A stretch of 64,000 bases of DNA. Source: Candidatus Sungiibacteriota bacterium. GTDB taxonomy: Bacteria; Patescibacteriota; Minisyncoccia; Sungbacterales; HO2-52-23. The stretch spans positions 60,342 through 124,341 of the forward strand of contig JACPBG010000002.1 of the NCBI GenBank assembly GCA_016180435.1. The letters are read 5' to 3'. The position numbers and the translations under genes were made by a program. The notes under the pieces are model-generated. The model had not been told where the DNA came from. It made no database searches and saw nothing but the letters and a program-made list of their open reading frames with translations. Position 1 is the first letter of the stretch. Each line of letters starts with the position of its first letter. Positions 34,167-47,247 of the stretch are shown here, piece after piece.

Positions 34167-34294
34167 TGGGAAAAATTGTATTTTGCTCGGCAACATTATT
34201 TTGAAACATTTTTATTCGCCCTGCAGCCATAAATTTTCCAGAACTCCTATTCGGACAAAAATAATCGCTTCATACCCCGCATTTTTTAACGGGC

Positions 34295-34345
34295 TTCGGC
34301 CGCTCCGGCGGCGGCCTGCAGGGTCGGCGACTCGCTCATGCGTAA
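34295..34345. repeat. partial family-A element (5' half)
   Basis: cggccgctccggcggcggcctgcagggtcggcga versus ccgctccggcggcggtctcgctaagggtcggaca. Confidence 0.4.
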
Positions 34346-34451
34346 TCATACCGAACCTACGTTAATGGAAAATTTCCGGCAAACAGGGCTCGCTTTATTT
34401 GATTTTTAGAATCAAATTGTCTCGTTGTAATTTTTCCTCATTGTGGAGTAG

Positions 34452-34491
34452 GGAGTTTGCTGAATGTAGCCGCGTTGCGCGGCTTTTTTAT
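34452..34491 (+). terminator. GGGTTTGCTGAATGTAGCCGC motif, copy 3, forming a terminator
   Basis: gggagtttgctgaatgtagccgcgttgcgcggcttttttatt. Confidence 0.55.
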
Positions 34492-34502
34492 TGATTTTTA
34501 AA

Positions 34503-34544
34503 CTGTATCTAAAATTACGCTTAAGCGTAATTTTAGATACAGTT
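34503..34544. promoter_or_regulatory. perfect 20-bp-arm palindrome, operator or terminator candidate
   Basis: ctgtatctaaaattacgcttaagcgtaattttagatacag. Confidence 0.5.
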
Positions 34545-34621
34545 ATTTCTGTGGAAAACTTTGGTTGAAAGTATTATGGGTGCGTGCTATTATCCTTTTC
34601 AGATCGTTGAGGAGTATTGAT

Positions 34622-34876
34622 ATGAAAGAACAGCCGAAGCAAATTCCGCATCCGAGAGACGGAAAAGTGTGGGTTAATGAGACAACCGAGGCTTGGCGTA
34701 AAGATGAGTGTTTGTGTCTGAACGGGTGTGCGAATATGAAACCCGGTCAGCCGGATCATTGCCAGATCGCCCAGCGTCTTTTTGATGCGTGCGTAGATGG
34801 GCGAGCGGCGCTTATGGTTACGCGCTGCGGTCTCTATAAGCCGGTCAAGGCGGACCCCGTGTTAACTTGTTCATAA
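34622..34876 (+). CDS. small Cys-rich hypothetical protein
   Basis: ORF 34565..34876; start taken at ATG 34622 (MKEQPKQIPH...); 8 Cys in 85 aa. Confidence 0.3.
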   Translation: MKEQPKQIPHPRDGKVWVNETTEAWRKDECLCLNGCANMKPGQPDHCQIAQRLFDACVDGRAALMVTRCGLYKPVKADPVLTCS

Positions 34877-34908
34877 AAAAAGCGGGCAGAAAATTCTGTC
34901 CGCTATTA

Positions 34909-35439
34909 TTATTTTACTTCAATTTGGATTTCATAAGAGAAGAGCACTTCCTCGCTCTTCACGACTCGGAAACGGATGACAGCATCTCCGAATGCCATCT
35001 TTTTGGAAATGTCGCCGGGTATCGAGATTGAATAATGGTTTTTTCCTCCATCGGTTTGAAAATCATCCCAAAGTATTCGCACTCGGTTTTCGTCGTTCTC
35101 TCCCTTTTCGATAACCTCGTGGAGAAATGTACATTTTTTTTCACTCCGGCGCGAACAAGGACTTTTTAAGCCGTCTCGGAGTGTGATTGCTATCCATACT
35201 CTGTATTCATCGCCGAGATATAAATATGTTTTGGGAAGTGGGGCGTGAATGAGGTGGATGGGTTGACTATTGCGGACTTGAAAATACCCATCCATCATCT
35301 GGAAAATGTATTGCTCTTGCGGTTTTTCTTGCGCAAGTGCTAAACGGAGTGTTAATTGTCCTGCAAACGCGAAGAGCGTAGAAATAAAGGCAAGTGCGAT
35401 TGAAAACCGATGCCATCGTAGAGTCAATTTTGTTTTCAT
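34909..35439 (-). CDS. secreted or membrane-anchored hypothetical protein
   Basis: ORF 34909..35505; start taken at MKTKLTLRWHRFSIALAFISTLFAFAG (signal-peptide-like). Confidence 0.4.
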   Translation of the reverse strand: MKTKLTLRWHRFSIALAFISTLFAFAGQLTLRLALAQEKPQEQYIFQMMDGYFQVRNSQPIHLIHAPLPKTYLYLGDEYRVWIAITLRDGLKSPCSRRSEKKCTFLHEVIEKGENDENRVRILWDDFQTDGGKNHYSISIPGDISKKMAFGDAVIRFRVVKSEEVLFSYEIQIEVK

Positions 35440-35603
35440 CTTTTTTCCGCCACGTGAAGGTACTATTGAAATGGTATGGCTGGGGATAAATAAAGTCAAA
35501 TACAAATACTTGCATTGTTAGTACAGTTATGCTATACTGTAATGTATAAGCTTAGTATTAAAACAATATAGGTCTTAGATATCAACATTTCTGTTGATGT
35601 TGA

Positions 35604-35706
35604 CCCCGTTAGAAAGAAACAAACATAGTAGTTCCAAAATTCCAAGCAATTTTTAACACAAGCCACGAATACGGCAATTAAAAACCTTTGTTTTTTTCTA
35701 ACGGGG
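35604..35706. repeat. repeat family D copy 1: CCCCGTTAGAA...TTCTAACGGGG terminal inverted repeats around ~80 nt of unique sequence
   Basis: ccccgttagaaagaaac...tttttttctaacgggg; same termini at 61000..61105 with unrelated interior. Confidence 0.6.
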
Positions 35707-36003: not shown

Positions 36004-36204
36004 GTGGCTTTTCAAGATCAACAGGGAGGATTCCAGGATGATCGCCCGAAATACGACATCACCTGTTCCAAATGTGGTAATCAAGGAACGGTTCCGTTCC
36101 CGCCCACACCGGGACGCGATGTCTTCTGCCGCGATTGTTTCCGTCAGAATAATCCGAATCCCCGCCGCGAATTTCGCGGACGCGGAGGATACGGATCAAG
36201 ATAA
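36004..36204 (+). CDS. small zinc-ribbon protein (CxxC-x17-PPTP-x5-CxxC, YacG-like pattern), standalone version of the ribbon found in the large Cys-rich paralogs
   Basis: CSKCGNQGTVPFPPTPGRDVFCRDC parallels CQNCKNEF...VPPPTWCPECR at 38815 and 41377. GTG start with no RBS. An overlapping frame (36038..36235) has a strong RBS (GGGAGGA) but a non-protein-like product. Confidence 0.35.
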   Translation: MAFQDQQGGFQDDRPKYDITCSKCGNQGTVPFPPTPGRDVFCRDCFRQNNPNPRREFRGRGGYGSR

Positions 36205-38352: not shown

Positions 38353-38401
38353 AATTAATTGGGCAATGGTAATTTATCTGGTAACGTGATATAATGGGTT
38401 T

Positions 38402-38617
38402 ATGAAGAAAACATATTTTACATCAGTTATATGGAAAGAAGGAAAATATTATGTTGCCCAGTGTCTTAATATTGATGTATCAAGTTTTGGTAAAACCAAA
38501 CGTGAAGCTCTAAAAAATCTGGAAGAGGCAGTGGAACTTTATTTGGAAGATAAACCGATTCGCGTTCAACGTGTTGTTTCGCCGTCTATTGTGGTGAGAG
38601 AATTGCAATATGCCTAA
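38402..38617 (+). CDS. hicB: HicB-family antitoxin (UPF0150-like)
   Basis: YYVAQCLNIDVSSFGKTKREALKNLEEAVELYLE. Confidence 0.65.
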   Translation: MKKTYFTSVIWKEGKYYVAQCLNIDVSSFGKTKREALKNLEEAVELYLEDKPIRVQRVVSPSIVVRELQYA

Positions 38618-38822
38618 GTTGTTTTCATCGCGGCGTGTCATTCAGGTCCTGGAGCGCCAGGGCTTTGTTTTTATTTCTCAACGGGGAAGTCACGCCAAAT
38701 ATCGCAAAACCGGTCCGCATACATTTACCGCGATTGTCCCTGTTGGGAAAAAGGAGATTCCACACGGAACTTTTCGTTCTATTGTACGCCAATCAGGATT
38801 ACAGGAGGAGAATTTTGAATAA
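38610..38822 (+). CDS. hicA: HicA-family toxin (YcfA-like)
   Basis: VLERQGFVFISQRGSHAKYRK...VPVGKKEIPHGTFRSIVRQSGL; overlaps hicB by 8 bp. Confidence 0.65.
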   Translation: MPKLFSSRRVIQVLERQGFVFISQRGSHAKYRKTGPHTFTAIVPVGKKEIPHGTFRSIVRQSGLQEENFE

Positions 38823-40593
38823 AATTATAAGCAATCAAGAAACAAAAATCTGTCAAAATTGTAAAAACGAGTTCACCATTGAATCGGTTGACTTTGCATT
38901 CTACGAAAAAATCCGTGTGCCGCCGCCCACCTGGTGTCCGGAGTGTAGGATGGTGCGGAGGATGGTGTTTAGAAACGAGCGCAAACTTTTTCGCATAAAA
39001 AGCGCGAAATCCGGCAAAGAAATTTTATCGTTAAATCCGCCGGAAGCCGGTGTTGCGGTTTATGATGAAAAAGAATGGTGGTCGGATGATTGGGATGCCC
39101 GAGAATACGGGAGAGAATATGATTTCTCGCGGCCGTTTTTTGATCAGTTTTTCGAGTTGTCGAGGGTTGTTCCGCGTTACAGCCGCGATGTCCTGAATAT
39201 GGTCAATAGCGATTATTCCGCCAATGCCGCTGATCTAAAAAATTGTTACCTTTTGTTTAACTCAAATTACAGCGAGGATTCTTCATACGGAAACGCCGTG
39301 GATAAATCACATTTTTGTTTTGATAATTCGCATATTCAAAAATGTGAAAGATGTTACGAGTCATTTTGGCTGGCAAATTGTTACCAGACCCATTTTTCCT
39401 CCAAGTGCGAGGATTGCCAGAGTGTATGGTTCTCAAAAAATTTACGCGGATGCAGCAATTGTTTCGGATGCGTGAATCTGCGCGGGAAAAATTACTGCAT
39501 TTTCAACAAGCAATATTCCAAAGAAGATTATATCAAAAAGTTGGAATCGTTTTCTTTGCATACTTTTTCCGGAATCACGGCAGTAAAGAAAACGGCGCTG
39601 GATTTTTGGTTAAAATTTCCCAACAAATATATTGAGGGCGTTAAAAATCTAAATTCATCCGGGGAATATGTTACGCATTCCAAAAATGTGCATCATGGTT
39701 ATTTGGTGCGTGAAGGGGAAGATTTGCGCTATGTCCAGTATGTGCAGCTGCCGCCCTCTAAAGATCTGATGGATATAACTGTCGGAGGGAACGGCATGGA
39801 ATTATCATATGAAAATGCGACAAGCGGTTGGGGCAGGGTTTATAACTTGAAATTTTGTGCGGAATGCTGGCCGGAGGTTCGGGATATGGAATATTCAATG
39901 TTTTGTACCTCATCCTCCAATCTTTTCGGGTGCGTGGGTCTTCATAAAAAAGAATTTTGCATTTTAAATAGGCAATATACGAAAGAATCCTTTGACCAGC
40001 TCAAGATAAAGATTATTAAACATATGGATGAAATGCCATATGTTGATTCGCGCGGCCGGGCGTATAAATATGGGGAGTTTTTTCCGCCGGAATTGTCGCC
40101 GTTTGCCTATAATCAAACTATTGCCATTGAGCATTTTCCTTTAACCAAAGAAGAAGCCGAGAAAGCGGGGTACAGATGGCAGGAGCCGACAAGGCGCGAA
40201 TATGAAATAACCATGACTGTGGATGAAATTCCGGATTCGATCAGGGATATCCGCGAAGACATTCTAAAAGAAGTTATTCAATGCGCGAGTTGCAAACGGG
40301 CGTATCGCCTGATACGTTCCGAATTGGAATTTTTGAAGAAAGAAGGCATTCCGGCGCCCAGAGTTTGCATTGACTGCCGGCATGACGAGCGTATCAGCCA
40401 AAGAAACAAAGCAATTTTTTATTCGCGCCGATGCGCGTGCAGCGGCCAAAATTCCGGGAACGGGGCGTATAAAAATACTGCTACTCATTTCCATGGTCCA
40501 AATCAGTGCCTTAATGAATTTAAAACAAGTTATGCGCCGGACAGGCCGGAGATAGTGTATTGCGAAGCGTGCTACAATTCTGAAGTTGTATAA
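38815..40593 (+). CDS. large cysteine-rich multi-zinc-ribbon protein, paralog A (~592 aa), unknown function
   Basis: TTG start behind AGGAGGAG, overlapping the hicA stop. N-terminal ribbon CQNCKNEF...VPPPTWCPECR, C-terminal ribbons CASCKRAY...CIDCR and YCEACYNSEVV; central Cys repeats. Collinear homolog of 41377..43101. Confidence 0.6.
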   Translation: MNKIISNQETKICQNCKNEFTIESVDFAFYEKIRVPPPTWCPECRMVRRMVFRNERKLFRIKSAKSGKEILSLNPPEAGVAVYDEKEWWSDDWDAREYGREYDFSRPFFDQFFELSRVVPRYSRDVLNMVNSDYSANAADLKNCYLLFNSNYSEDSSYGNAVDKSHFCFDNSHIQKCERCYESFWLANCYQTHFSSKCEDCQSVWFSKNLRGCSNCFGCVNLRGKNYCIFNKQYSKEDYIKKLESFSLHTFSGITAVKKTALDFWLKFPNKYIEGVKNLNSSGEYVTHSKNVHHGYLVREGEDLRYVQYVQLPPSKDLMDITVGGNGMELSYENATSGWGRVYNLKFCAECWPEVRDMEYSMFCTSSSNLFGCVGLHKKEFCILNRQYTKESFDQLKIKIIKHMDEMPYVDSRGRAYKYGEFFPPELSPFAYNQTIAIEHFPLTKEEAEKAGYRWQEPTRREYEITMTVDEIPDSIRDIREDILKEVIQCASCKRAYRLIRSELEFLKKEGIPAPRVCIDCRHDERISQRNKAIFYSRRCACSGQNSGNGAYKNTATHFHGPNQCLNEFKTSYAPDRPEIVYCEACYNSEVV

Positions 40594-40785
40594 TGAAAGC
40601 ACGCGGAGTCCCGCCTCAATTCAAGAATTGATTTTGTATATAGATGTAGTAAGCCGAAGGCGTTGCTGCGCTATGATCCTAATTTTACTGCTGACTTCGC
40701 ACGGAATTGAGGCGGACGAAAATTGCTACAATAATGAAGTGGTATGATGTTTGACCGTTATATCTATGTTTGTTATTATTGAACC

Positions 40786-41013
40786 ATGGCTAATCATAAG
40801 CGACAATTTGTACATTATGATCCGGAGGCTGACGTTATTGCCATGTATAACGGTAAGGGGCGTGAAGAGGAGTTCGTGGAAGTGGCGCCCAATGTTTCTT
40901 TAGAATTAGACAAAAAAGGGTCGGTAATCGGTATTGAAATTTTGAACGCATCTAAAGTGTTGCGTCCTTTTTGGAACTCATTGCGTAAACGGCAATCTTC
41001 TTACATAAAGTAA
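40786..41013 (+). CDS. DUF2283-like small protein, candidate antitoxin partner
   Basis: VHYDPEADVIAMYNGKG...ELDKKGSVIGIEILNAS. Confidence 0.5.
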   Translation: MANHKRQFVHYDPEADVIAMYNGKGREEEFVEVAPNVSLELDKKGSVIGIEILNASKVLRPFWNSLRKRQSSYIK

Positions 41014-41304
41014 ATGGAAGTTCGCTACAGTCAACATCTTGAAATTCGTCTCACAATGCGCGGCATACCACACGAGTTGCCGCGCATTGTATATGAAAAT
41101 GCCAAGCGGCGGTTTCATGATACTGACTCGGATCTTGACATTGCGGTGCTGCGTACCGCTTTTTACGGACGGCAACGGGATGTTGTGGTTGCCTATCGTA
41201 TATATTCAGATTATGTTTTGCTGATTACTATCCACCCACTTAAAGAAGGACAATTCGAAAACCGGATTCGCTCTGGACGTTGGACGGAGATTCCATCGTT
41301 ATGA
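41014..41304 (+). CDS. DUF4258-like small protein, candidate toxin partner
   Basis: Begins 1 nt after the previous stop; HLEIRLTMRGIPHELPRIVYENA...VVVAYRIYSDYVLLITIH. Confidence 0.45.
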   Translation: MEVRYSQHLEIRLTMRGIPHELPRIVYENAKRRFHDTDSDLDIAVLRTAFYGRQRDVVVAYRIYSDYVLLITIHPLKEGQFENRIRSGRWTEIPSL

Positions 41305-41376
41305 GTTGTGATGTAAAAGAATATTTACCCTCCCAAATTTTACAAAGTAAAACTTGGGAGGGCGGGCGAAAAAAAT

Positions 41377-43101
41377 ATGACACGACAATGCCAAAATTGT
41401 AACCAGAGCTTTGAAATTGCCCCCGAGGACCTTTCGTTTTACGACCGCATTCATGTCCCGCCGCCCACCTGGTGTCCAAGATGCCGGTTTCAGAGACGGC
41501 TCGCATTTTTTAATTTAACCGCGCTTTACAAGCGAAAATGCGATCTTTGCGGCGAGGAAAAAATTTCCATTTATCGTCCGGATGCGCCTTATAGAGTTTA
41601 TTGTCCGCCCTGCTGGTGGTCGGATAAGTGGGACCCTATGCAATATGGACGTGATTACGATTTTTCACGATCGTTTTTTGAGCAATACGCTGATCTTGTG
41701 CATGAGGTCCCGCACTGCGGCTTGGCAACTGACCATACGACGGTCATCAATTCAACCTATACCAATCACGCCGGAAATCTCAAAAATTGCTATTTGTTAT
41801 TCCAGGCGGATTTTAATGAGGACTGCGCGCACGGAGTATATGTTAAAAATTCAAGGTCCACGCTTGATTCCTCATTGATATTGAAATCCGAACTCTGCTA
41901 TGACTCCATGCACTCATATAAAAATAGCCATTGTGCGGGACTGCGAAGCCAGGTGACCAATTCGCTTGATTGTTACTTTCTCAAGGACTCATTTAATTGC
42001 CAGTATTGTTTTGCATCCGCCAATTTGCGAAATCGGAAGCATGTTATTTTTAATAAGCAATATTCTCCGGAAGATTATTTTAAGGAAATCGCGAGATGGG
42101 ATTTAGGTTCGTACGCCAAGTATCAAGAGATCAAATGTCTTGCCGAGGCGCACTGGAAAACTTTGCCGCCCAAGCCGCATATGGATGATTTTTCCGTAAA
42201 TTCATCGGGCAGCCATTACTTCCAGTGCAAAAACTGCAAGGATTGTTTTGAGGTGTGGGGCGAGGCCGAAGACAGTAAGTTTCTTTTTATGCTTTCCATT
42301 CCTCCGTTGAAAGATTGTTACGACGTATCAACCTGGGGCAATAATTTGCAGTTATCGTATGAATCATATGCAGTGGGCGAGCAGGGCGCCAATCTTAAAT
42401 TTTGTGCGGAGTCGGGTATCAATGCGCATTTACTGGAATATTGCAAGTTTACATTCGGAGGGGTGGAGGATTTCGGATGCGTTGGGTTGCGAAAGAAACA
42501 ATACTGTATCTTGAATAAACAATATACGAAAGAGGAGTATGAGAAAATGGTGCCAAAAATCAAGAAGCATATGGATGAAATGCCGTATATTTCAGAAATC
42601 CGAAATCCGAAGCACGAAATCCGAAAGATAATATATAAATACGGGGAATTTTTTCCGATAGAATTGAGTCCGTTTCCTTATAACGATACTGTGGCGCATA
42701 ATTTTTTCCCGCTTACCAAAGAAGATGCGTTGGCACGGGGATATAAATGGGGCGATAAAGAAAAAAGAGCTTATCCCATCACAATAAAGGCAAGCGATCT
42801 GCCGGATCATATCAAAGATGCGCCAGGTACCATTTTACAGGAAGTGATAGAATGTGTTGCATGCGGCCGGGGATTTAGAATCATTCCGATGGAGTTTAAA
42901 TTTTTACGAAAAATGAATTTGCCTTTGCCTCGGCAATGCCCGTTTTGCCGGATTGATGAGAAATTCACACTGTGGGTTAAAGATTTACGGGTTATCCCGC
43001 GGACGTGCGATAAGTGCGGCACATCGCTCACGACCAATTACACGCAAGAGGAAGCCCCTGTGATTTATTGCAAAGCATGCTATAATAATGAAGTAATATA
43101 A
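41377..43101 (+). CDS. large cysteine-rich multi-zinc-ribbon protein, paralog B (574 aa)
   Basis: RBS GGGAGGG; CQNCNQSF...VPPPTWCPRCR; CVACGRGF...CPFCR; YCKACYNNEVI; shares GCVGL, KHMDEMPY and YKYGEFFP...ELSPF blocks with paralog A. Confidence 0.6.
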   Translation: MTRQCQNCNQSFEIAPEDLSFYDRIHVPPPTWCPRCRFQRRLAFFNLTALYKRKCDLCGEEKISIYRPDAPYRVYCPPCWWSDKWDPMQYGRDYDFSRSFFEQYADLVHEVPHCGLATDHTTVINSTYTNHAGNLKNCYLLFQADFNEDCAHGVYVKNSRSTLDSSLILKSELCYDSMHSYKNSHCAGLRSQVTNSLDCYFLKDSFNCQYCFASANLRNRKHVIFNKQYSPEDYFKEIARWDLGSYAKYQEIKCLAEAHWKTLPPKPHMDDFSVNSSGSHYFQCKNCKDCFEVWGEAEDSKFLFMLSIPPLKDCYDVSTWGNNLQLSYESYAVGEQGANLKFCAESGINAHLLEYCKFTFGGVEDFGCVGLRKKQYCILNKQYTKEEYEKMVPKIKKHMDEMPYISEIRNPKHEIRKIIYKYGEFFPIELSPFPYNDTVAHNFFPLTKEDALARGYKWGDKEKRAYPITIKASDLPDHIKDAPGTILQEVIECVACGRGFRIIPMEFKFLRKMNLPLPRQCPFCRIDEKFTLWVKDLRVIPRTCDKCGTSLTTNYTQEEAPVIYCKACYNNEVI

Positions 43102-44838: not shown

Positions 44839-46032
44839 ATGTCTAAAATATCCACTCCGGGGCTTATTATTTTAGGGATTGCGCTTATTGCTGGAAGCGC
44901 GTACTGGTTTTGGCTTGATGATATTAAGCCACGGCTTGCGGATAATGATAAAATTGTCTGTATTCAAGACGCTAAACTCTGCCCCGACGGTTCAAAAGTC
45001 GGCCGCACCGGCCCGAGTTGCGAGTTTGCGTCTTGCCCGCCGCCACCCGTAGACCCGTCAAAAATTAAGGTTGATGATCATCAAGATGATATTTCGTATC
45101 TGCCAAGTTCCATATCCGGCTGGAAAAAATATAAGAACGGCAAATATGGTTTTGAATTTGATCTGCCTGAAGAATGGAGTGTCAAAGATGCCACCGGTGG
45201 TTTGCTGTCAAAAGGTAGCACGGAAAAATTTTATACCGCTTCGCCCGTACCTTATGACCATATTTTCGCCGTTTTAATTAAAACGAAATCCGTAGAAGAA
45301 TTAATTCAGCCGTATAAAAATAATTTAAACGCCGATCTCAATCAAAAAATTTTAGGAATTGAAAATATCGAAAAATTCGGACACCATACCGTGAGATTAA
45401 GATTGCAAAATATAACTACGGGACAGAAATTTTCTGAATATTTCGTTCGGCCATTCGGGCATAATTGGACATTCATTATAATCGGCGAAGGTGACGTTAC
45501 GCATCCTTATCATGATGTCGGCAACGAAATTGTTAATACTTTTAAATTTGTTGAACCGATAGATACCTCAACCTGGAAAACCTATCGTAACGAAAAATAC
45601 GGGTTTGAGGTGAAGTATCCAAGAGAGTGGGGAGAGGTTAAATTTCAAGCATTTGATCGGCTTTCCGGAAGTTGTATTGCACAAGGGATTGTTATTCGCG
45701 GTTCATTTACAAATAAAAAATTAAATTATTTTTGTAGCGAGTCTTTAGATTACAAACCGTGCGGCGATAGAGGCGGCTCTGTTTGTGATATCAAGAACTT
45801 CACTATCGAGAACGGTCAAATAGCAGATAACTCAGGAGGTAAGTATGACATTCTAAAAAGCGTAAAAACCAGTTCCGCGGGCATTGAAGGATATATTTTT
45901 GTAGATCCATATGGAGATATAGTAGGAATCATTAAATTTACGCATGGCGAGCTAGGCACCATTTCTTTCGGTTCTTACGAAGATGTTTTAATTTTAGAAC
46001 AAATCCTTTCCACTTTTAAATTTTTGAAATAA
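44839..46032 (+). CDS. secreted hypothetical protein with internally duplicated domain
   Basis: N-terminal TM/signal; repeats WKKYKNGKYGFEFDLPEEW and WKTYRNEKYGFEVKYPREW. Confidence 0.4.
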   Translation: MSKISTPGLIILGIALIAGSAYWFWLDDIKPRLADNDKIVCIQDAKLCPDGSKVGRTGPSCEFASCPPPPVDPSKIKVDDHQDDISYLPSSISGWKKYKNGKYGFEFDLPEEWSVKDATGGLLSKGSTEKFYTASPVPYDHIFAVLIKTKSVEELIQPYKNNLNADLNQKILGIENIEKFGHHTVRLRLQNITTGQKFSEYFVRPFGHNWTFIIIGEGDVTHPYHDVGNEIVNTFKFVEPIDTSTWKTYRNEKYGFEVKYPREWGEVKFQAFDRLSGSCIAQGIVIRGSFTNKKLNYFCSESLDYKPCGDRGGSVCDIKNFTIENGQIADNSGGKYDILKSVKTSSAGIEGYIFVDPYGDIVGIIKFTHGELGTISFGSYEDVLILEQILSTFKFLK

Positions 46033-46076
46033 AGCGTCGGTTTGACGGAGAGCATTAAATTGTCTATTATAAATAT

Positions 46077-46286
46077 ATGAATACGGTTACTATACCTAAA
46101 AAAGAATACTATACTCTTGTGAGTCGTCAGGAAAAGATGGAAGAAGAGCTGGACATTCTGAAGACAATGGTTCGCGCCGAAATAGATGAGGGATATATAC
46201 GTCCTACAATATTGCGCCGCTGGGAGCGAATCAGCCGTGACCTTGACCGTGGAAAAGGGCGCGTATTTAATTTTCATGATGTATGA
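46077..46286 (+). CDS. small hypothetical protein translationally coupled to pgi
   Basis: 69 aa; stop overlaps the PGI/PMI start. Confidence 0.3.
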   Translation: MNTVTIPKKEYYTLVSRQEKMEEELDILKTMVRAEIDEGYIRPTILRRWERISRDLDRGKGRVFNFHDV

Positions 46287-47247
46287 CTCCATTAAAAATT
46301 TTAATCAGCAGTTTCTGTTTGAGCCGAAAATTGAGAATAAGGCCTGTTTGGGAAAATATGGGTATTTTGTGATTGCCGGAATGGGCGGATCTGGTCTTGC
46401 GGCAGAACTTCTTTTAACTTATGATCCGGCATTGCCTGTTATCATCCATAAAGATTATGGCCTGCCGGAAATTGCAATTCGAGACAGAAAAAAAACCCTT
46501 GTTATCGTTGATTCTTATTCGGGCAATACCGAGGAGGCGCTGGATGCTTTTAGGACGGCTCGAGCGCGTGGTTTTCCACTTGCCGCAATCTCTATCGGCG
46601 GCAAGCTTTTGGATCTGGCGCGTAAATATAACGTGCCGTACGTGCAGATGCCGGATATCGGGATACAGCCGCGGATGGGCCTCGGATTTAATTTTGGGGC
46701 GCTTCTTAAAATAATACGAAAAGAGCAGGCACTGGCTGCAACCAATAAATTATATAATTTTATTAATGCGTCGTTTTATCGTACAAAGGGGATTGTCTTG
46801 GCAAAAAAATTACGAAAAAACGTTCCGATTATTTACGCTTCAATGCGTAACCGCGCAATAGGATATGCCTGGAAAATAAAACTTAATGAAACCGGGAAAA
46901 TTCCGGCATTTGCGAATGTTTTGCCGGAACTTAATCATAATGAAATGAATGGTTTTGACTCGGTTTCAAAAACGCGGGAACTCTCCAGTAATTTTCATTT
47001 TATTTTCTTAAAAGACACGAAGGATCATCCGCGGATTCAATTGCGTATGAAAGTGCTTGAGAAGCTTTATCGTAGCCGTAAGCTTCCGGTGGAAATAGTT
47101 CAGCTGGCCGGGCGCAACCGCGCCCATGCCGTTTTCTCATCATTGCTTCTGGCGGATTGGACCGCGCTTTTCTTGGCCGAATACTATGGCGTTGAACCGG
47201 AACAGGTGCCCATGGTGGAGGAATTCAAGATTTTAATCAGCGAATAA
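46276..47247 (+). CDS. bifunctional phosphoglucose/phosphomannose isomerase (SIS domain, archaeal-type PGI/PMI)
   Basis: GYFVIAGMGGSGLAAELLL...; two SIS-like halves. Start taken at ATG 46276/46279. Confidence 0.65.
   Translation: MMYDSIKNFNQQFLFEPKIENKACLGKYGYFVIAGMGGSGLAAELLLTYDPALPVIIHKDYGLPEIAIRDRKKTLVIVDSYSGNTEEALDAFRTARARGFPLAAISIGGKLLDLARKYNVPYVQMPDIGIQPRMGLGFNFGALLKIIRKEQALAATNKLYNFINASFYRTKGIVLAKKLRKNVPIIYASMRNRAIGYAWKIKLNETGKIPAFANVLPELNHNEMNGFDSVSKTRELSSNFHFIFLKDTKDHPRIQLRMKVLEKLYRSRKLPVEIVQLAGRNRAHAVFSSLLLADWTALFLAEYYGVEPEQVPMVEEFKILISE

Follow-up and report, generated by a model that had tools for sequence, protein, structure and literature searches.

The building blocks of the proteins described here, zinc fingers and a β-solenoid, are already known. 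Paired zinc fingers occur in the LIM domain, which is known from eukaryotes, and solenoids with small residues at every third position include the curli protein CsgA (8c50), insect and plant ice-binding proteins (3ult, 1m8n, and 1ezg), and the left-handed β-helix acyltransferases LpxA and GlmU. A zinc finger with CxxC-x17-CxxC spacing is covered by the models zf_Tbcl_2 (PF23477), zf_Tbcl (PF13451), and TIGR04272; one study (PMC12704099) reports zinc, measured by inductively coupled plasma mass spectrometry (ICP-MS), in purified small proteins of M. mazei that have this domain. A survey from 2025 (PMC12102498) counts 5,713 VirD4 homologues in 2,918 genomes of Patescibacteria, 148 of them near virB4, and raises their exaptation for another role as a possibility. 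Here, we describe two paralogous genes, ZR1 and ZR2, and the very large protein family to which they belong. Both genes lie in a stretch of 64,000 nucleotides (positions 60,342 to 124,341 of contig JACPBG010000002.1, forward strand, assembly GCA_016180435.1, Candidatus Sungiibacteriota bacterium), hereafter called the window.

ZR1 (38815..40593, + strand) and ZR2 (41377..43101, + strand) encode proteins of 592 and 574 residues, respectively. A sequence-only reading of the window had described the two open reading frames (ORFs) as collinear homologs, and the proteins indeed align from end to end in BLASTP with 40% identity (E 2e-150). Orthologs of ZR1 and ZR2 found elsewhere are 55–80% identical, as against 40% between the two paralogs, so the duplication predates the divergence of the lineages that carry them. 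The split between ZR1 and ZR2 within this very large family is thus ancient. The start of ZR1 is most plausibly the TTG at 38815, which is preceded by AGGAGGA at 38803-38809; its overlap with the stop codon of an upstream HicA gene (38820-38822) had been noticed in the same reading. The sequence blocks that it had singled out (VPPPTWCPxCR, GCVGL, KHMDEMPY, and YKYGEFFPxELSPF) are conserved columns across the whole family.

Homology searches with ZR1 and ZR2, in which the 8,000 best candidates were scored for each query so that match counts are lower bounds, gave at least 7,996 and at least 7,385 matches, and all named ones are called “hypothetical.” The matches come nearly all from metagenome-assembled genomes (MAGs) named for Parcubacteria-type candidate lineages (Sung-, Giovannoni-, Lipton-, Jorgensen-, Niyogi-, Nomura-, and Staskawicz-bacteria, and Paceibacterota). 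An exhaustive profile search over 1.84 billion representatives of 50% identity clusters returned 5,137 clusters with an E of 1e-3 or lower, of which 2,168 reach E<=1e-30; among the 150 best profile matches listed, most are 550–600 residues long and align with the full length of the profile. At least 530 stretches were confirmed in GTDB species representatives (one genome per species), and the records listed from these genomes are almost only Patescibacteria-named, mostly for lineages of the Parcubacteria/Paceibacteria type, or generically named. Records with odd labels (Babeliales, Bdellovibrionales, Curtissbacteria, and Gracilibacteria) were also seen, and these labels may be binning or naming errors.

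The sequence-only reading had recognized no characterized family, and searches of Pfam, NCBIfam, PADLOC, PHROG, and PDB sequences with ZR1 and ZR2 likewise ended without an assignment. No Pfam or NCBIfam model could be assigned to ZR1, ZR2, or 72 family members scanned one by one, for which only sub-threshold zinc-finger matches were obtained; PADLOC-DB defence models and PHROGs gave zero matches to ZR1 and ZR2; and in PDB sequences, searched with a single sequence and with a profile, the last finger alone had matches, which were weak and LIM-like. Relatives of the family were not found in IMG/VR viral contigs, INPHARED phages, or PLSDB plasmids. A full-text literature search found no paper describing the family; Meheust et al. 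(PMC6744442) come closest, with 20 families enriched in Parcubacteria that are mostly hypothetical and are not described further. Hence, this is an undescribed protein family with an undescribed architecture, public only as “hypothetical protein,” for which we found neither a domain model nor a solved relative. The novelty lies in the family and its architecture; no new mechanism is demonstrated.

For comparative analysis, we used approximately 80 non-redundant family loci (79 fetched from GTDB species representatives; numbered L001 and onward) containing approximately 200 members. Conservation, co-occurrence, and transmembrane statistics refer to an alignment of 161 members in ZR2 numbering. 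Grouped by 45% identity, the members from the fetched loci form at least 24 clusters; ZR1 belongs to subfamily “A,” the largest group, and ZR2 to subfamily “D,” and A and D members often lie near each other. Family genes typically occur in tandem, with 2 to at least 11 paralogs per array: in L003, a 621-kb contig, a segment of 21.7 kb contains at least 11 full-length copies, and L001 has 4 + 1 and L005 has 2 + 1. The 11 family genes of L003 take up at least 3% of the contig. Patescibacteria (the candidate phyla radiation, CPR), tiny symbionts with very small genomes, account for much of bacterial diversity and have hardly been cultured. The family is probably central to the workings of Paceibacteria-type cells.

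Using the orthologs in L086 (for ZR1) and L089 (for ZR2) as references, the ratio of nonsynonymous to synonymous substitution rates (dN/dS) is 0.10 for ZR1 and 0.05 for ZR2, compared with 0.05-0.21 for neighbouring genes encoding an M50 protease, Pyr_redox, DsbA, glutaredoxin (Grx), redoxin, 6-phosphogluconolactonase (PGL), and phosphoglucose isomerase (PGI). The ZR genes are under strong purifying selection and evolve like core genes, unlike conflict genes. A transmembrane-like segment was found in 0 of the 161 aligned members, and signal peptides are likewise absent from the ZR proteins, which suggests that they are soluble and cytoplasmic.

Some copies of family genes are broken up. In L089:613-2349 (also in L090 and L091; 11 contigs), the ZR2 ortholog (78% amino acid identity) has an in-frame TAG that replaces a conserved Glu (FFEQ to FF*Q) and yields an ORF of 105 residues, containing the double finger, and an ORF of 468 residues. 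The part downstream of the TAG has a dN/dS of 0.05 relative to ZR2 of the window, and the gene appears to be functional, in split form or by read-through, and does not resemble a decaying pseudogene. In several family genes of other MAGs, the N-terminal finger is found as a separate short ORF in another frame (L012:8556-8738, L012:5846-5983, L033:5815-5979, and L036:5980-6129); possible causes are frameshifts, small insertions, or errors of assembly at the 5' end. In the window, approximately 110 bp past the stop codon of ZR1, a relic at 40703-40747 (+ strand) encodes DENCYNNEVV followed by a stop and resembles the 3' end of a ZR gene, with 20 of the last 27 nucleotides identical to either ZR 3' end. 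The same relic follows the ZR1 ortholog of L086 and probably derives from a paralog that was lost.

Confident AlphaFold2 (AF2) models built on family alignments were obtained for ZR2 (m22817ca18e4b; predicted local distance difference test score, pLDDT, 89.7; predicted template modeling score, pTM, 0.87) and ZR1 (mf22d528811bd; pLDDT 86.1, pTM 0.86). These models point to a pseudo-symmetric layout, in which a double-finger module is followed by two homologous solenoid halves, a hairpin with the YGEFFP motif, and a second double-finger module. Two internal duplications were detected with hhalign, relating residues 1-85 to 486-574 (probability 99.8%, E 7e-28) and residues 125-262 to 275-402 (probability 99.9%, E 4e-35). 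The resemblance of the N-terminal finger to an internal finger near residues 488-532 is also seen with BLASTP (E 3e-5).

In ZR2, the N-terminal double-finger module (residues 1-85; 41377..41631, + strand) consists of finger 1 (C5/C8/C33/C36), whose second Cys pair opens a helix with the basic residues R37, R40, and R41, and finger 2 (C55/C58/C76/C79), which has CxxC-x17-CxxC spacing and is followed by a short helical linker. The first solenoid half, with its cap and helix (residues 125-262; 41749..42162, + strand; solenoid body ~125-228), has the cap motif C208-x2-C211-FxxxNLRxKxxxIFNKxYSxEDY. The second half (residues 275-402; 42199..42582, + strand; body ~275-382) has FGC368VGLRKKQYC377ILNKQYTKEEY, followed by a helix with KHMDEMPY (KHMxEMPY in the family). 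Across the family, the cap motif of the solenoid halves reads NLRxKxYxIxNKxYSKEEY and is followed by a helix. A β-hairpin (residues 403-447; 42583..42717, + strand) with the aromatic-acidic motif YKYGEFFPxELSPFxYNxT (YKYGEFFPxExSPFxYNxT in the family) comes next; its column entropy is among the lowest, and G423, P427, Y435, and N436 are invariant or nearly so. The hairpin is a candidate partner-binding site. An acidic linker connects the hairpin to finger 3 of the C-terminal double-finger module (residues 488-574; 42838..43098, + strand). This module contains finger 3 (C493/C496/C521/C524), a region with a mean net charge of +5.4 across the family, and finger 4 (C544/C547/C565/C568; CxxC-x17-CxxC), and the chain ends in the conserved C-terminus CxxCYxxEV-COOH.

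The Cys quartets of the fingers are conserved at 0.88-0.99, with values of 0.97-0.99 for finger 1. In finger 2, C58, C76, and C79 are jointly present in 61% of the members and jointly absent otherwise (phi 0.99-1.0), and C55 is present in 79%. This all-or-none retention or loss of the Cys argues for finger 2 as a four-ligand metal site. All four Cys4 fingers are intact in ZR2. ZR1 retains three of them (1, 3, and 4); none of the four Cys of finger 2 is present, although the AF2 model of ZR1 still keeps the hairpin. The proposal of the sequence-only reading that these are multi-zinc-finger metalloproteins fits with the conserved quartets, with the coordinated behaviour of finger 2, and with the zinc measured in the M. 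mazei proteins that have this type of finger (PMC12704099), and the Cys4 fingers are predicted to be zinc sites, numbering three to four per protein. At residues 540-561 of ZR1 (40432-40497), a 22-residue insertion with a conserved HxH interrupts the first knuckle of finger 4 (RxCxC...HxH....C); the HxH insertion is common to A-type members, ZR1 included, and may give rise to a metal site that is different or extra.

Each ZR protein contains 29-33 Cys. The central run of short Cys repeats seen earlier in the sequence corresponds to Cys columns at strict 3-residue spacing in the β-solenoid predicted by AF2. Each of these columns is variable (15-80% Cys), with Ser, Thr, Val, and Leu as substitutes and no co-occurrence between columns. 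The solenoid Cys are probably interchangeable small repeat residues that pack the solenoid interior and not metal ligands. We also considered iron–sulfur sites or extra zinc sites formed by the variable solenoid Cys, against which the lack of co-occurrence and the replacement by Ser, Thr, Val, or Leu speak. The most conserved parts are finger 1, the caps, and the hairpin, and variability as well as subfamily-specific differences lie mainly in the solenoids. The invariant residues are mostly Cys, aromatic residues, Pro, Gly, and Asn; the 161-member alignment has no invariant His and no recognizable catalytic motif.

Comparison with the described systems shows partial likeness in each case. Fingers 2 and 4 of ZR2 share the exact x2/x17/x2 Cys spacing of zf_Tbcl_2, zf_Tbcl, and TIGR04272, and 19 and 11 of the 72 scanned members have sub-threshold matches to the two Pfam models, located like those to LIM in the C-terminal module. 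However, none of the 72 reaches the Pfam gathering score (best E 9e-5), and in the ZR proteins this finger represents only ~30 of ~570 residues. Moreover, it is always preceded by a longer CxxC-x24-CPxCR finger, in a fixed 85-residue double module that occurs twice per protein, and the Cys of finger 2 are lost in 39% of the members, ZR1 included. The 85-residue module resembles LIM in having two consecutive zinc fingers, which is an analogy of docking modules only. LIM-like matches of the last finger (Pfam LIM in 7 of 72 members; PDB entry 1ctl, E 0.028) are below significance, and the ligand spacing of finger 1 differs from that of LIM, so the likeness is one of working principle and not of membership.

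The solenoid, like those of the β-solenoid proteins named above, has small residues (Cys, Ser, and Thr) at every third position, and structure matches are confined to this part of the protein. Foldseek searches of PDB and BFVD gave no match at E<=1e-3. Identities to the known solenoids are 4-15% over ~100 aligned residues, and a faint precomputed match to the insect antifreeze protein (AFP) family was seen for one paralog. Unlike the secreted members of this class, the ZR proteins appear to be cytoplasmic, and their solenoid is duplicated, capped, and set between zinc-finger modules. They are not secreted proteins with curlin repeats, as curli/CsgA proteins are, and they do not combine the Pfam Hexapep signature (0 of 72 members) with a left-handed β-helix (LbH) fold, as LbH transferases do.

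In other loci, the usual neighbours of family genes are core genes, encoding SecF, sigma70_r4/HARE-HTH proteins, RpoA, ribosomal proteins, RluA, LeuRS, and GluRS, and genes for cell wall synthesis and division (MraY, FtsW, MurG, MurC, M23, and FtsE). The only recurrent non-housekeeping neighbour is a VirD4/TraG-like ATPase, often accompanied by a DUF8128 membrane protein. Such an ATPase with a Walker A motif lies no more than two genes from a family gene in 20 of 80 loci, a count that disregards kinship between loci. ATPase genes (T) and family genes (Z) may be interleaved, as ZTZTZ in L076 and TZT in L051. These ATPases are P-loop proteins whose fold is unrelated to that of the ZR proteins, yet 7 of 26 have the CxxC-x17-CxxC motif. 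In L086, the closest relative of the window locus, a VirD4/TraG-like ATPase gene is found within 1 kb after the ZR1 ortholog, and further along the locus encodes one more paralog of the family and a second such ATPase, which is fused to zf_Tbcl_2. A string of genes was also observed upstream of D-type ZR genes in L001, L008, L014, L016, L019, L020, and others (e.g. L016:66-5943). Its order is a SecF-like gene, sigma70_r4/HARE-HTH, the DUF8128 membrane protein, a small transmembrane protein with an RxxxxH motif (HEPN-like), a TrwB/VirD4-like ATPase, and often CutA, and some of the ATPases in this string carry a CxxC-x17-CxxC finger.

Taken together, the best overall explanation, to which we give an even chance of being correct, is that the ZR proteins form a conserved family of zinc-stabilized adaptors or scaffolds in Patescibacteria, next to which toxin–antitoxin (TA) genes are incidental. 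Three features argue for a binding protein rather than an enzyme, namely the structural type of the invariant residues together with the missing His and catalytic motif, the contrast between the conserved finger 1, caps, and hairpin and the variable solenoid bodies, and the LIM-like double fingers at both ends of the chain. The proteins would be rigid and non-enzymatic. The double fingers at both ends and the invariant hairpin would dock onto a partner common to the family, and the variable faces of the solenoid would set the specificity of each paralog. This partner could be a nucleic acid or an acidic protein, since the region of finger 3 is strongly basic.

The most likely common partner would be the orphan VirD4/TraG-like ATPase with its DUF8128 companion, to which the family would recruit or present different cargoes. 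The adjacency and interleaving of the genes, the shared CxxC-x17-CxxC finger, and the orphan VirD4 homologues of the survey suggest the ATPase in this role. That the ZR proteins are adaptors or clients of these ATPases is a low-confidence proposal, a lead and not an established link. Several observations weigh against the adaptor reading and its extension to the ATPases. The adaptor model draws on architecture and gene neighbourhood only, with no homology to any characterized protein; the 64-kb window contains no VirD4-like gene; and 75% of the loci have no ATPase beside the family gene within the fetched flanks. In addition, a TA pair is also found upstream of the ZR2 ortholog of a close relative, meaning that this spot holds TA genes recurrently in the lineage.

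A bolder version, which we consider possible but unlikely, is that ZR proteins, orphan VirD4/TraG-like ATPases, and DUF8128 proteins together make up an unrecognized, lineage-defining cytoplasmic machine of Paceibacteria. A set of 2 to more than 11 paralogous zinc-finger/β-solenoid adaptors would serve an exapted coupling ATPase in this machine, and the cargo presented to it, whether protein or nucleic acid, would differ from one adaptor to the next. If true, this would give a function to thousands of stray patescibacterial VirD4 homologues and to one of the largest unannotated families.

The alternative that survives best, although we regard it as unlikely, is that ZR proteins are enzymes, for example LbH-like transferases or enzymes modifying peptides or nucleic acids, with paralogs differing in substrate and an active site in the hairpin/YGEFFP region or at the junction of the solenoid halves; an enzyme-like pocket within residues 383-487 is conceivable. 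The high conservation, the many subfamilies reminiscent of substrate classes, and the biosynthetic and housekeeping genes in the surroundings would fit such a role; conserved polar residues are available (D83, Q103, K136, E148, D164, D316, and N436), and C208, C211, C368, and C377 could form an extra metal site. However, no Hexapep or other enzyme Pfam match was obtained in the 72 scanned members, and most invariant positions are structural, without an invariant His or recognizable catalytic motif. The likeness to LbH proteins is weak and confined to the generic solenoid, for which the best match is the non-enzymatic curlin.

The occurrence of many equal-sized paralogs in arrays, some of them beside FtsW, MurG, MurC, and M23 genes, could also indicate a cytoskeletal or structural polymer, in which solenoids stack end to end in a curli- or bactofilin-like manner to form intracellular hetero-filaments. 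The predicted architecture makes this quite improbable, since cap motifs and helices on both solenoid halves and finger modules at both ends normally block open-ended stacking. Copy numbers ranging from 1–2 to at least 11 between genomes are also unexpected for a fixed lattice.

Similarly low is the probability we give to the idea that the ZR proteins are translocated cargo, that is, substrates sent out toward a host by the neighbouring VirD4-like coupling ATPases. The recurrent adjacency to ATPases resembling type IV coupling proteins (T4CPs) fits this idea, and the conserved extreme C-terminus CxxCYxxEV-COOH could serve as a recognition signal. Effectors, however, usually evolve fast and vary in architecture, whereas the ZR proteins are uniform and under strong purifying selection, and three or four zinc-finger folds and a rigid solenoid make poor secretion substrates. 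Moreover, in the survey cited above (PMC12102498), most patescibacterial VirD4 homologues are not near virB4.

The genes around ZR1 and ZR2 had suggested a link to thiol redox chemistry, and Pfam matches confirm the redox character of the flanks (Pyr_redox_2 for the FAD oxidoreductase, DsbA/Thioredoxin_4, Glutaredoxin, and AhpC-TSA/Redoxin for the TlpA-like redoxin), with a Pfam-identified M50 protease gene upstream. ZR proteins could then be redox-linked metalloproteins acting as client, sensor, or partner of these enzymes, which the synteny kept in L086 and L089 and the 29-33 Cys, many of them probably free thiols in the solenoid interior, would support. Across the ~80 loci, however, the link does not hold: homologs of the redox neighbours occur in just one or two (Pyr_redox in 2, DsbA in 1, TlpA in 1, and Grx in 0), and of the three loci with such homologs, two bear the names of the same two candidate lineages in which close ZR relatives also occur. 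The usual neighbours are instead genes for translation, the cell wall, secretion, and ATPases, and the solenoid Cys are individually dispensable and do not co-occur. DsbA and the TlpA-like protein start with hydrophobic segments resembling membrane anchors, which suggests extracytoplasmic action, whereas signal peptides and transmembrane segments are missing from the ZR proteins. A redox role is thus very doubtful.

Upstream of ZR1, a 66-residue protein with a CxxC-x17-CxxC finger is encoded at 36004..36204 (+ strand). It matches zf_Tbcl_2 (E 1.4e-14; 53.9 bits versus a cut-off of 27) and TIGR04272 (E 9e-15), and its gene is kept in the same place in L086. It had been taken for a standalone copy of the ZR ribbon; this applies to fingers of the type of 2 and 4, as it matches positions 53-86 of a hidden Markov model of the ZR C-terminal module (E 0.002), and not to the N-terminal VPPPTWCPxCR finger. 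Between the M50 gene and the 66-residue finger gene, a segment at ~34170-35690 includes ~1.3 kb with no counterpart in L086. It contains ORFs for a Cys-containing protein of 103 residues (34565..34876, + strand) and a protein of 198 residues (34909..35505, − strand), neither of which has a Pfam match.

In the window, each ZR gene is preceded by a TA-like cassette of two genes, as described in the sequence-only reading; HicA and DUF2283 are identified by Pfam. Of the pair upstream of ZR1, the HicA toxin (70 residues; 38610..38822, + strand) is clear (PF07927, E 1.2e-15, 57.7 bits versus a cut-off of 27; phrog_353 “toxin,” 2.7e-15), whereas the HicB-like antitoxin candidate (71 residues; 38402..38617, + strand) has only weak Pfam and PHROG matches (DUF7387, E 6.7e-6, 26.8 bits and thus below the cut-off of 27.9; UPF0150, E 0.052; a HicB-like PHROG, E 0.0025). 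The pair upstream of ZR2 had been read as DUF2283-like and DUF4258-like. The DUF2283 assignment of the first protein (75 residues; 40786..41013, + strand) stands (PF10049, E 1.6e-12); that of its 96-residue partner (41014..41304, + strand) to DUF4258 falls away, as no Pfam match was found at E<=1. The DUF2283 pair recurs in L012 (partner E 1e-32), upstream of another paralog, and the pairing suggests that the 96-residue protein is a toxin. A PADLOC-DB scan of these four small TA-like proteins gave 0 families. Between the gene for the 96-residue protein and the start of ZR2, a hairpin with a near-perfect 17-bp stem (41327-41363), with no T-run after it on the + strand, may mark the boundary of an inserted cassette or be a regulatory stem-loop.

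The upstream pairs are thus similar to type II TA systems (HicAB and the DUF2283 pair), yet lie outside the conserved context of the ZR family. Homologs of the HicA and HicB proteins of the window were found in 0 of the ~80 loci and the DUF2283 pair in 1, so the association with TA genes does not extend to related loci. The median gap upstream of a family gene is 57 bp (n = 147), and in 108 of the 147 genes (73%), the gap is less than 150 bp, leaving no room for a TA pair. L086-L088 share the gene order M50 - Pyr_redox - DsbA - ZR1 with the window; their ZR1 ortholog, with 81% identity to ZR1, follows DsbA after 12 bp, without HicBA. The corresponding segment of the window (38355-38832, ~478 bp), comprising HicB, HicA, and the first six codons of ZR1, has no counterpart in L086. 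Because DsbA abuts the ZR1 ortholog in this close relative, the HicBA cassette is a recent, lineage-specific insertion in the window lineage, with its own promoter-like site (TATAAT at 38391-38396). Most likely, the same applies to the DUF2283 pair, which is preceded by a sigma70-like site (TTGACC-17-TATTAT at 40751-40779).

Where the window has the DUF2283 pair, L089-L091 have a different HicB_lk/HicA pair upstream of a ZR2 ortholog that is 78% identical to ZR2. Larger upstream gaps in other loci contain CutA, ArsR-type helix-turn-helix (HTH) genes, or sporadic unrelated TA genes, such as HicA/UPF0150 on the opposite strand (L009), PemK (L018), and Gp49 with HTH_3 (L077). Apart from CutA, ArsR-type HTH, and sporadic TA genes, no small partner gene recurs between paralogs. 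Hence, in the window lineage, the intergenic spots before ZR genes collect varied TA cassettes.

A defence or conflict module, in which the Cys-rich protein would act as effector and the upstream TA pair would regulate it or be coupled to it, had been proposed on the strength of the cassettes before both window paralogs and the overlap of the ZR1 start with the HicA stop, and would gain from the HicB_lk/HicA pair in the close relative, the DUF2283 pair in L012, and the TA genes in L009, L018, and L077; it is nevertheless highly improbable and largely refuted, given the lack of PADLOC and PHROG matches and of relatives in the phage, plasmid, and viral-contig collections, the short upstream gaps, the closest ZR1 ortholog without HicBA, TA types and orientations that vary by locus as expected of opportunistic insertions, and a housekeeping-like dN/dS of 0.05-0.10 with 55-60% identity across MAGs named for many candidate lineages, which is atypical of conflict genes. 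More generally, a large protein encoded beside a TA pair in a CPR genome can be the product of a core gene next to an opportunistic insertion, and the arrangement does not necessarily indicate a defence island.

Another variable spot lies farther downstream. In L089, the interval from the 6-phosphogluconolactonase-like gene to the PGI gene (L089:4237-5868) contains five small genes, including one for a ParE toxin, and its counterpart in the window (44839-46290) has a gene for a PsbP_2-like protein of 397 residues instead. The PGL–PGI interval is thus a further variable, TA-collecting intergenic spot in this lineage.

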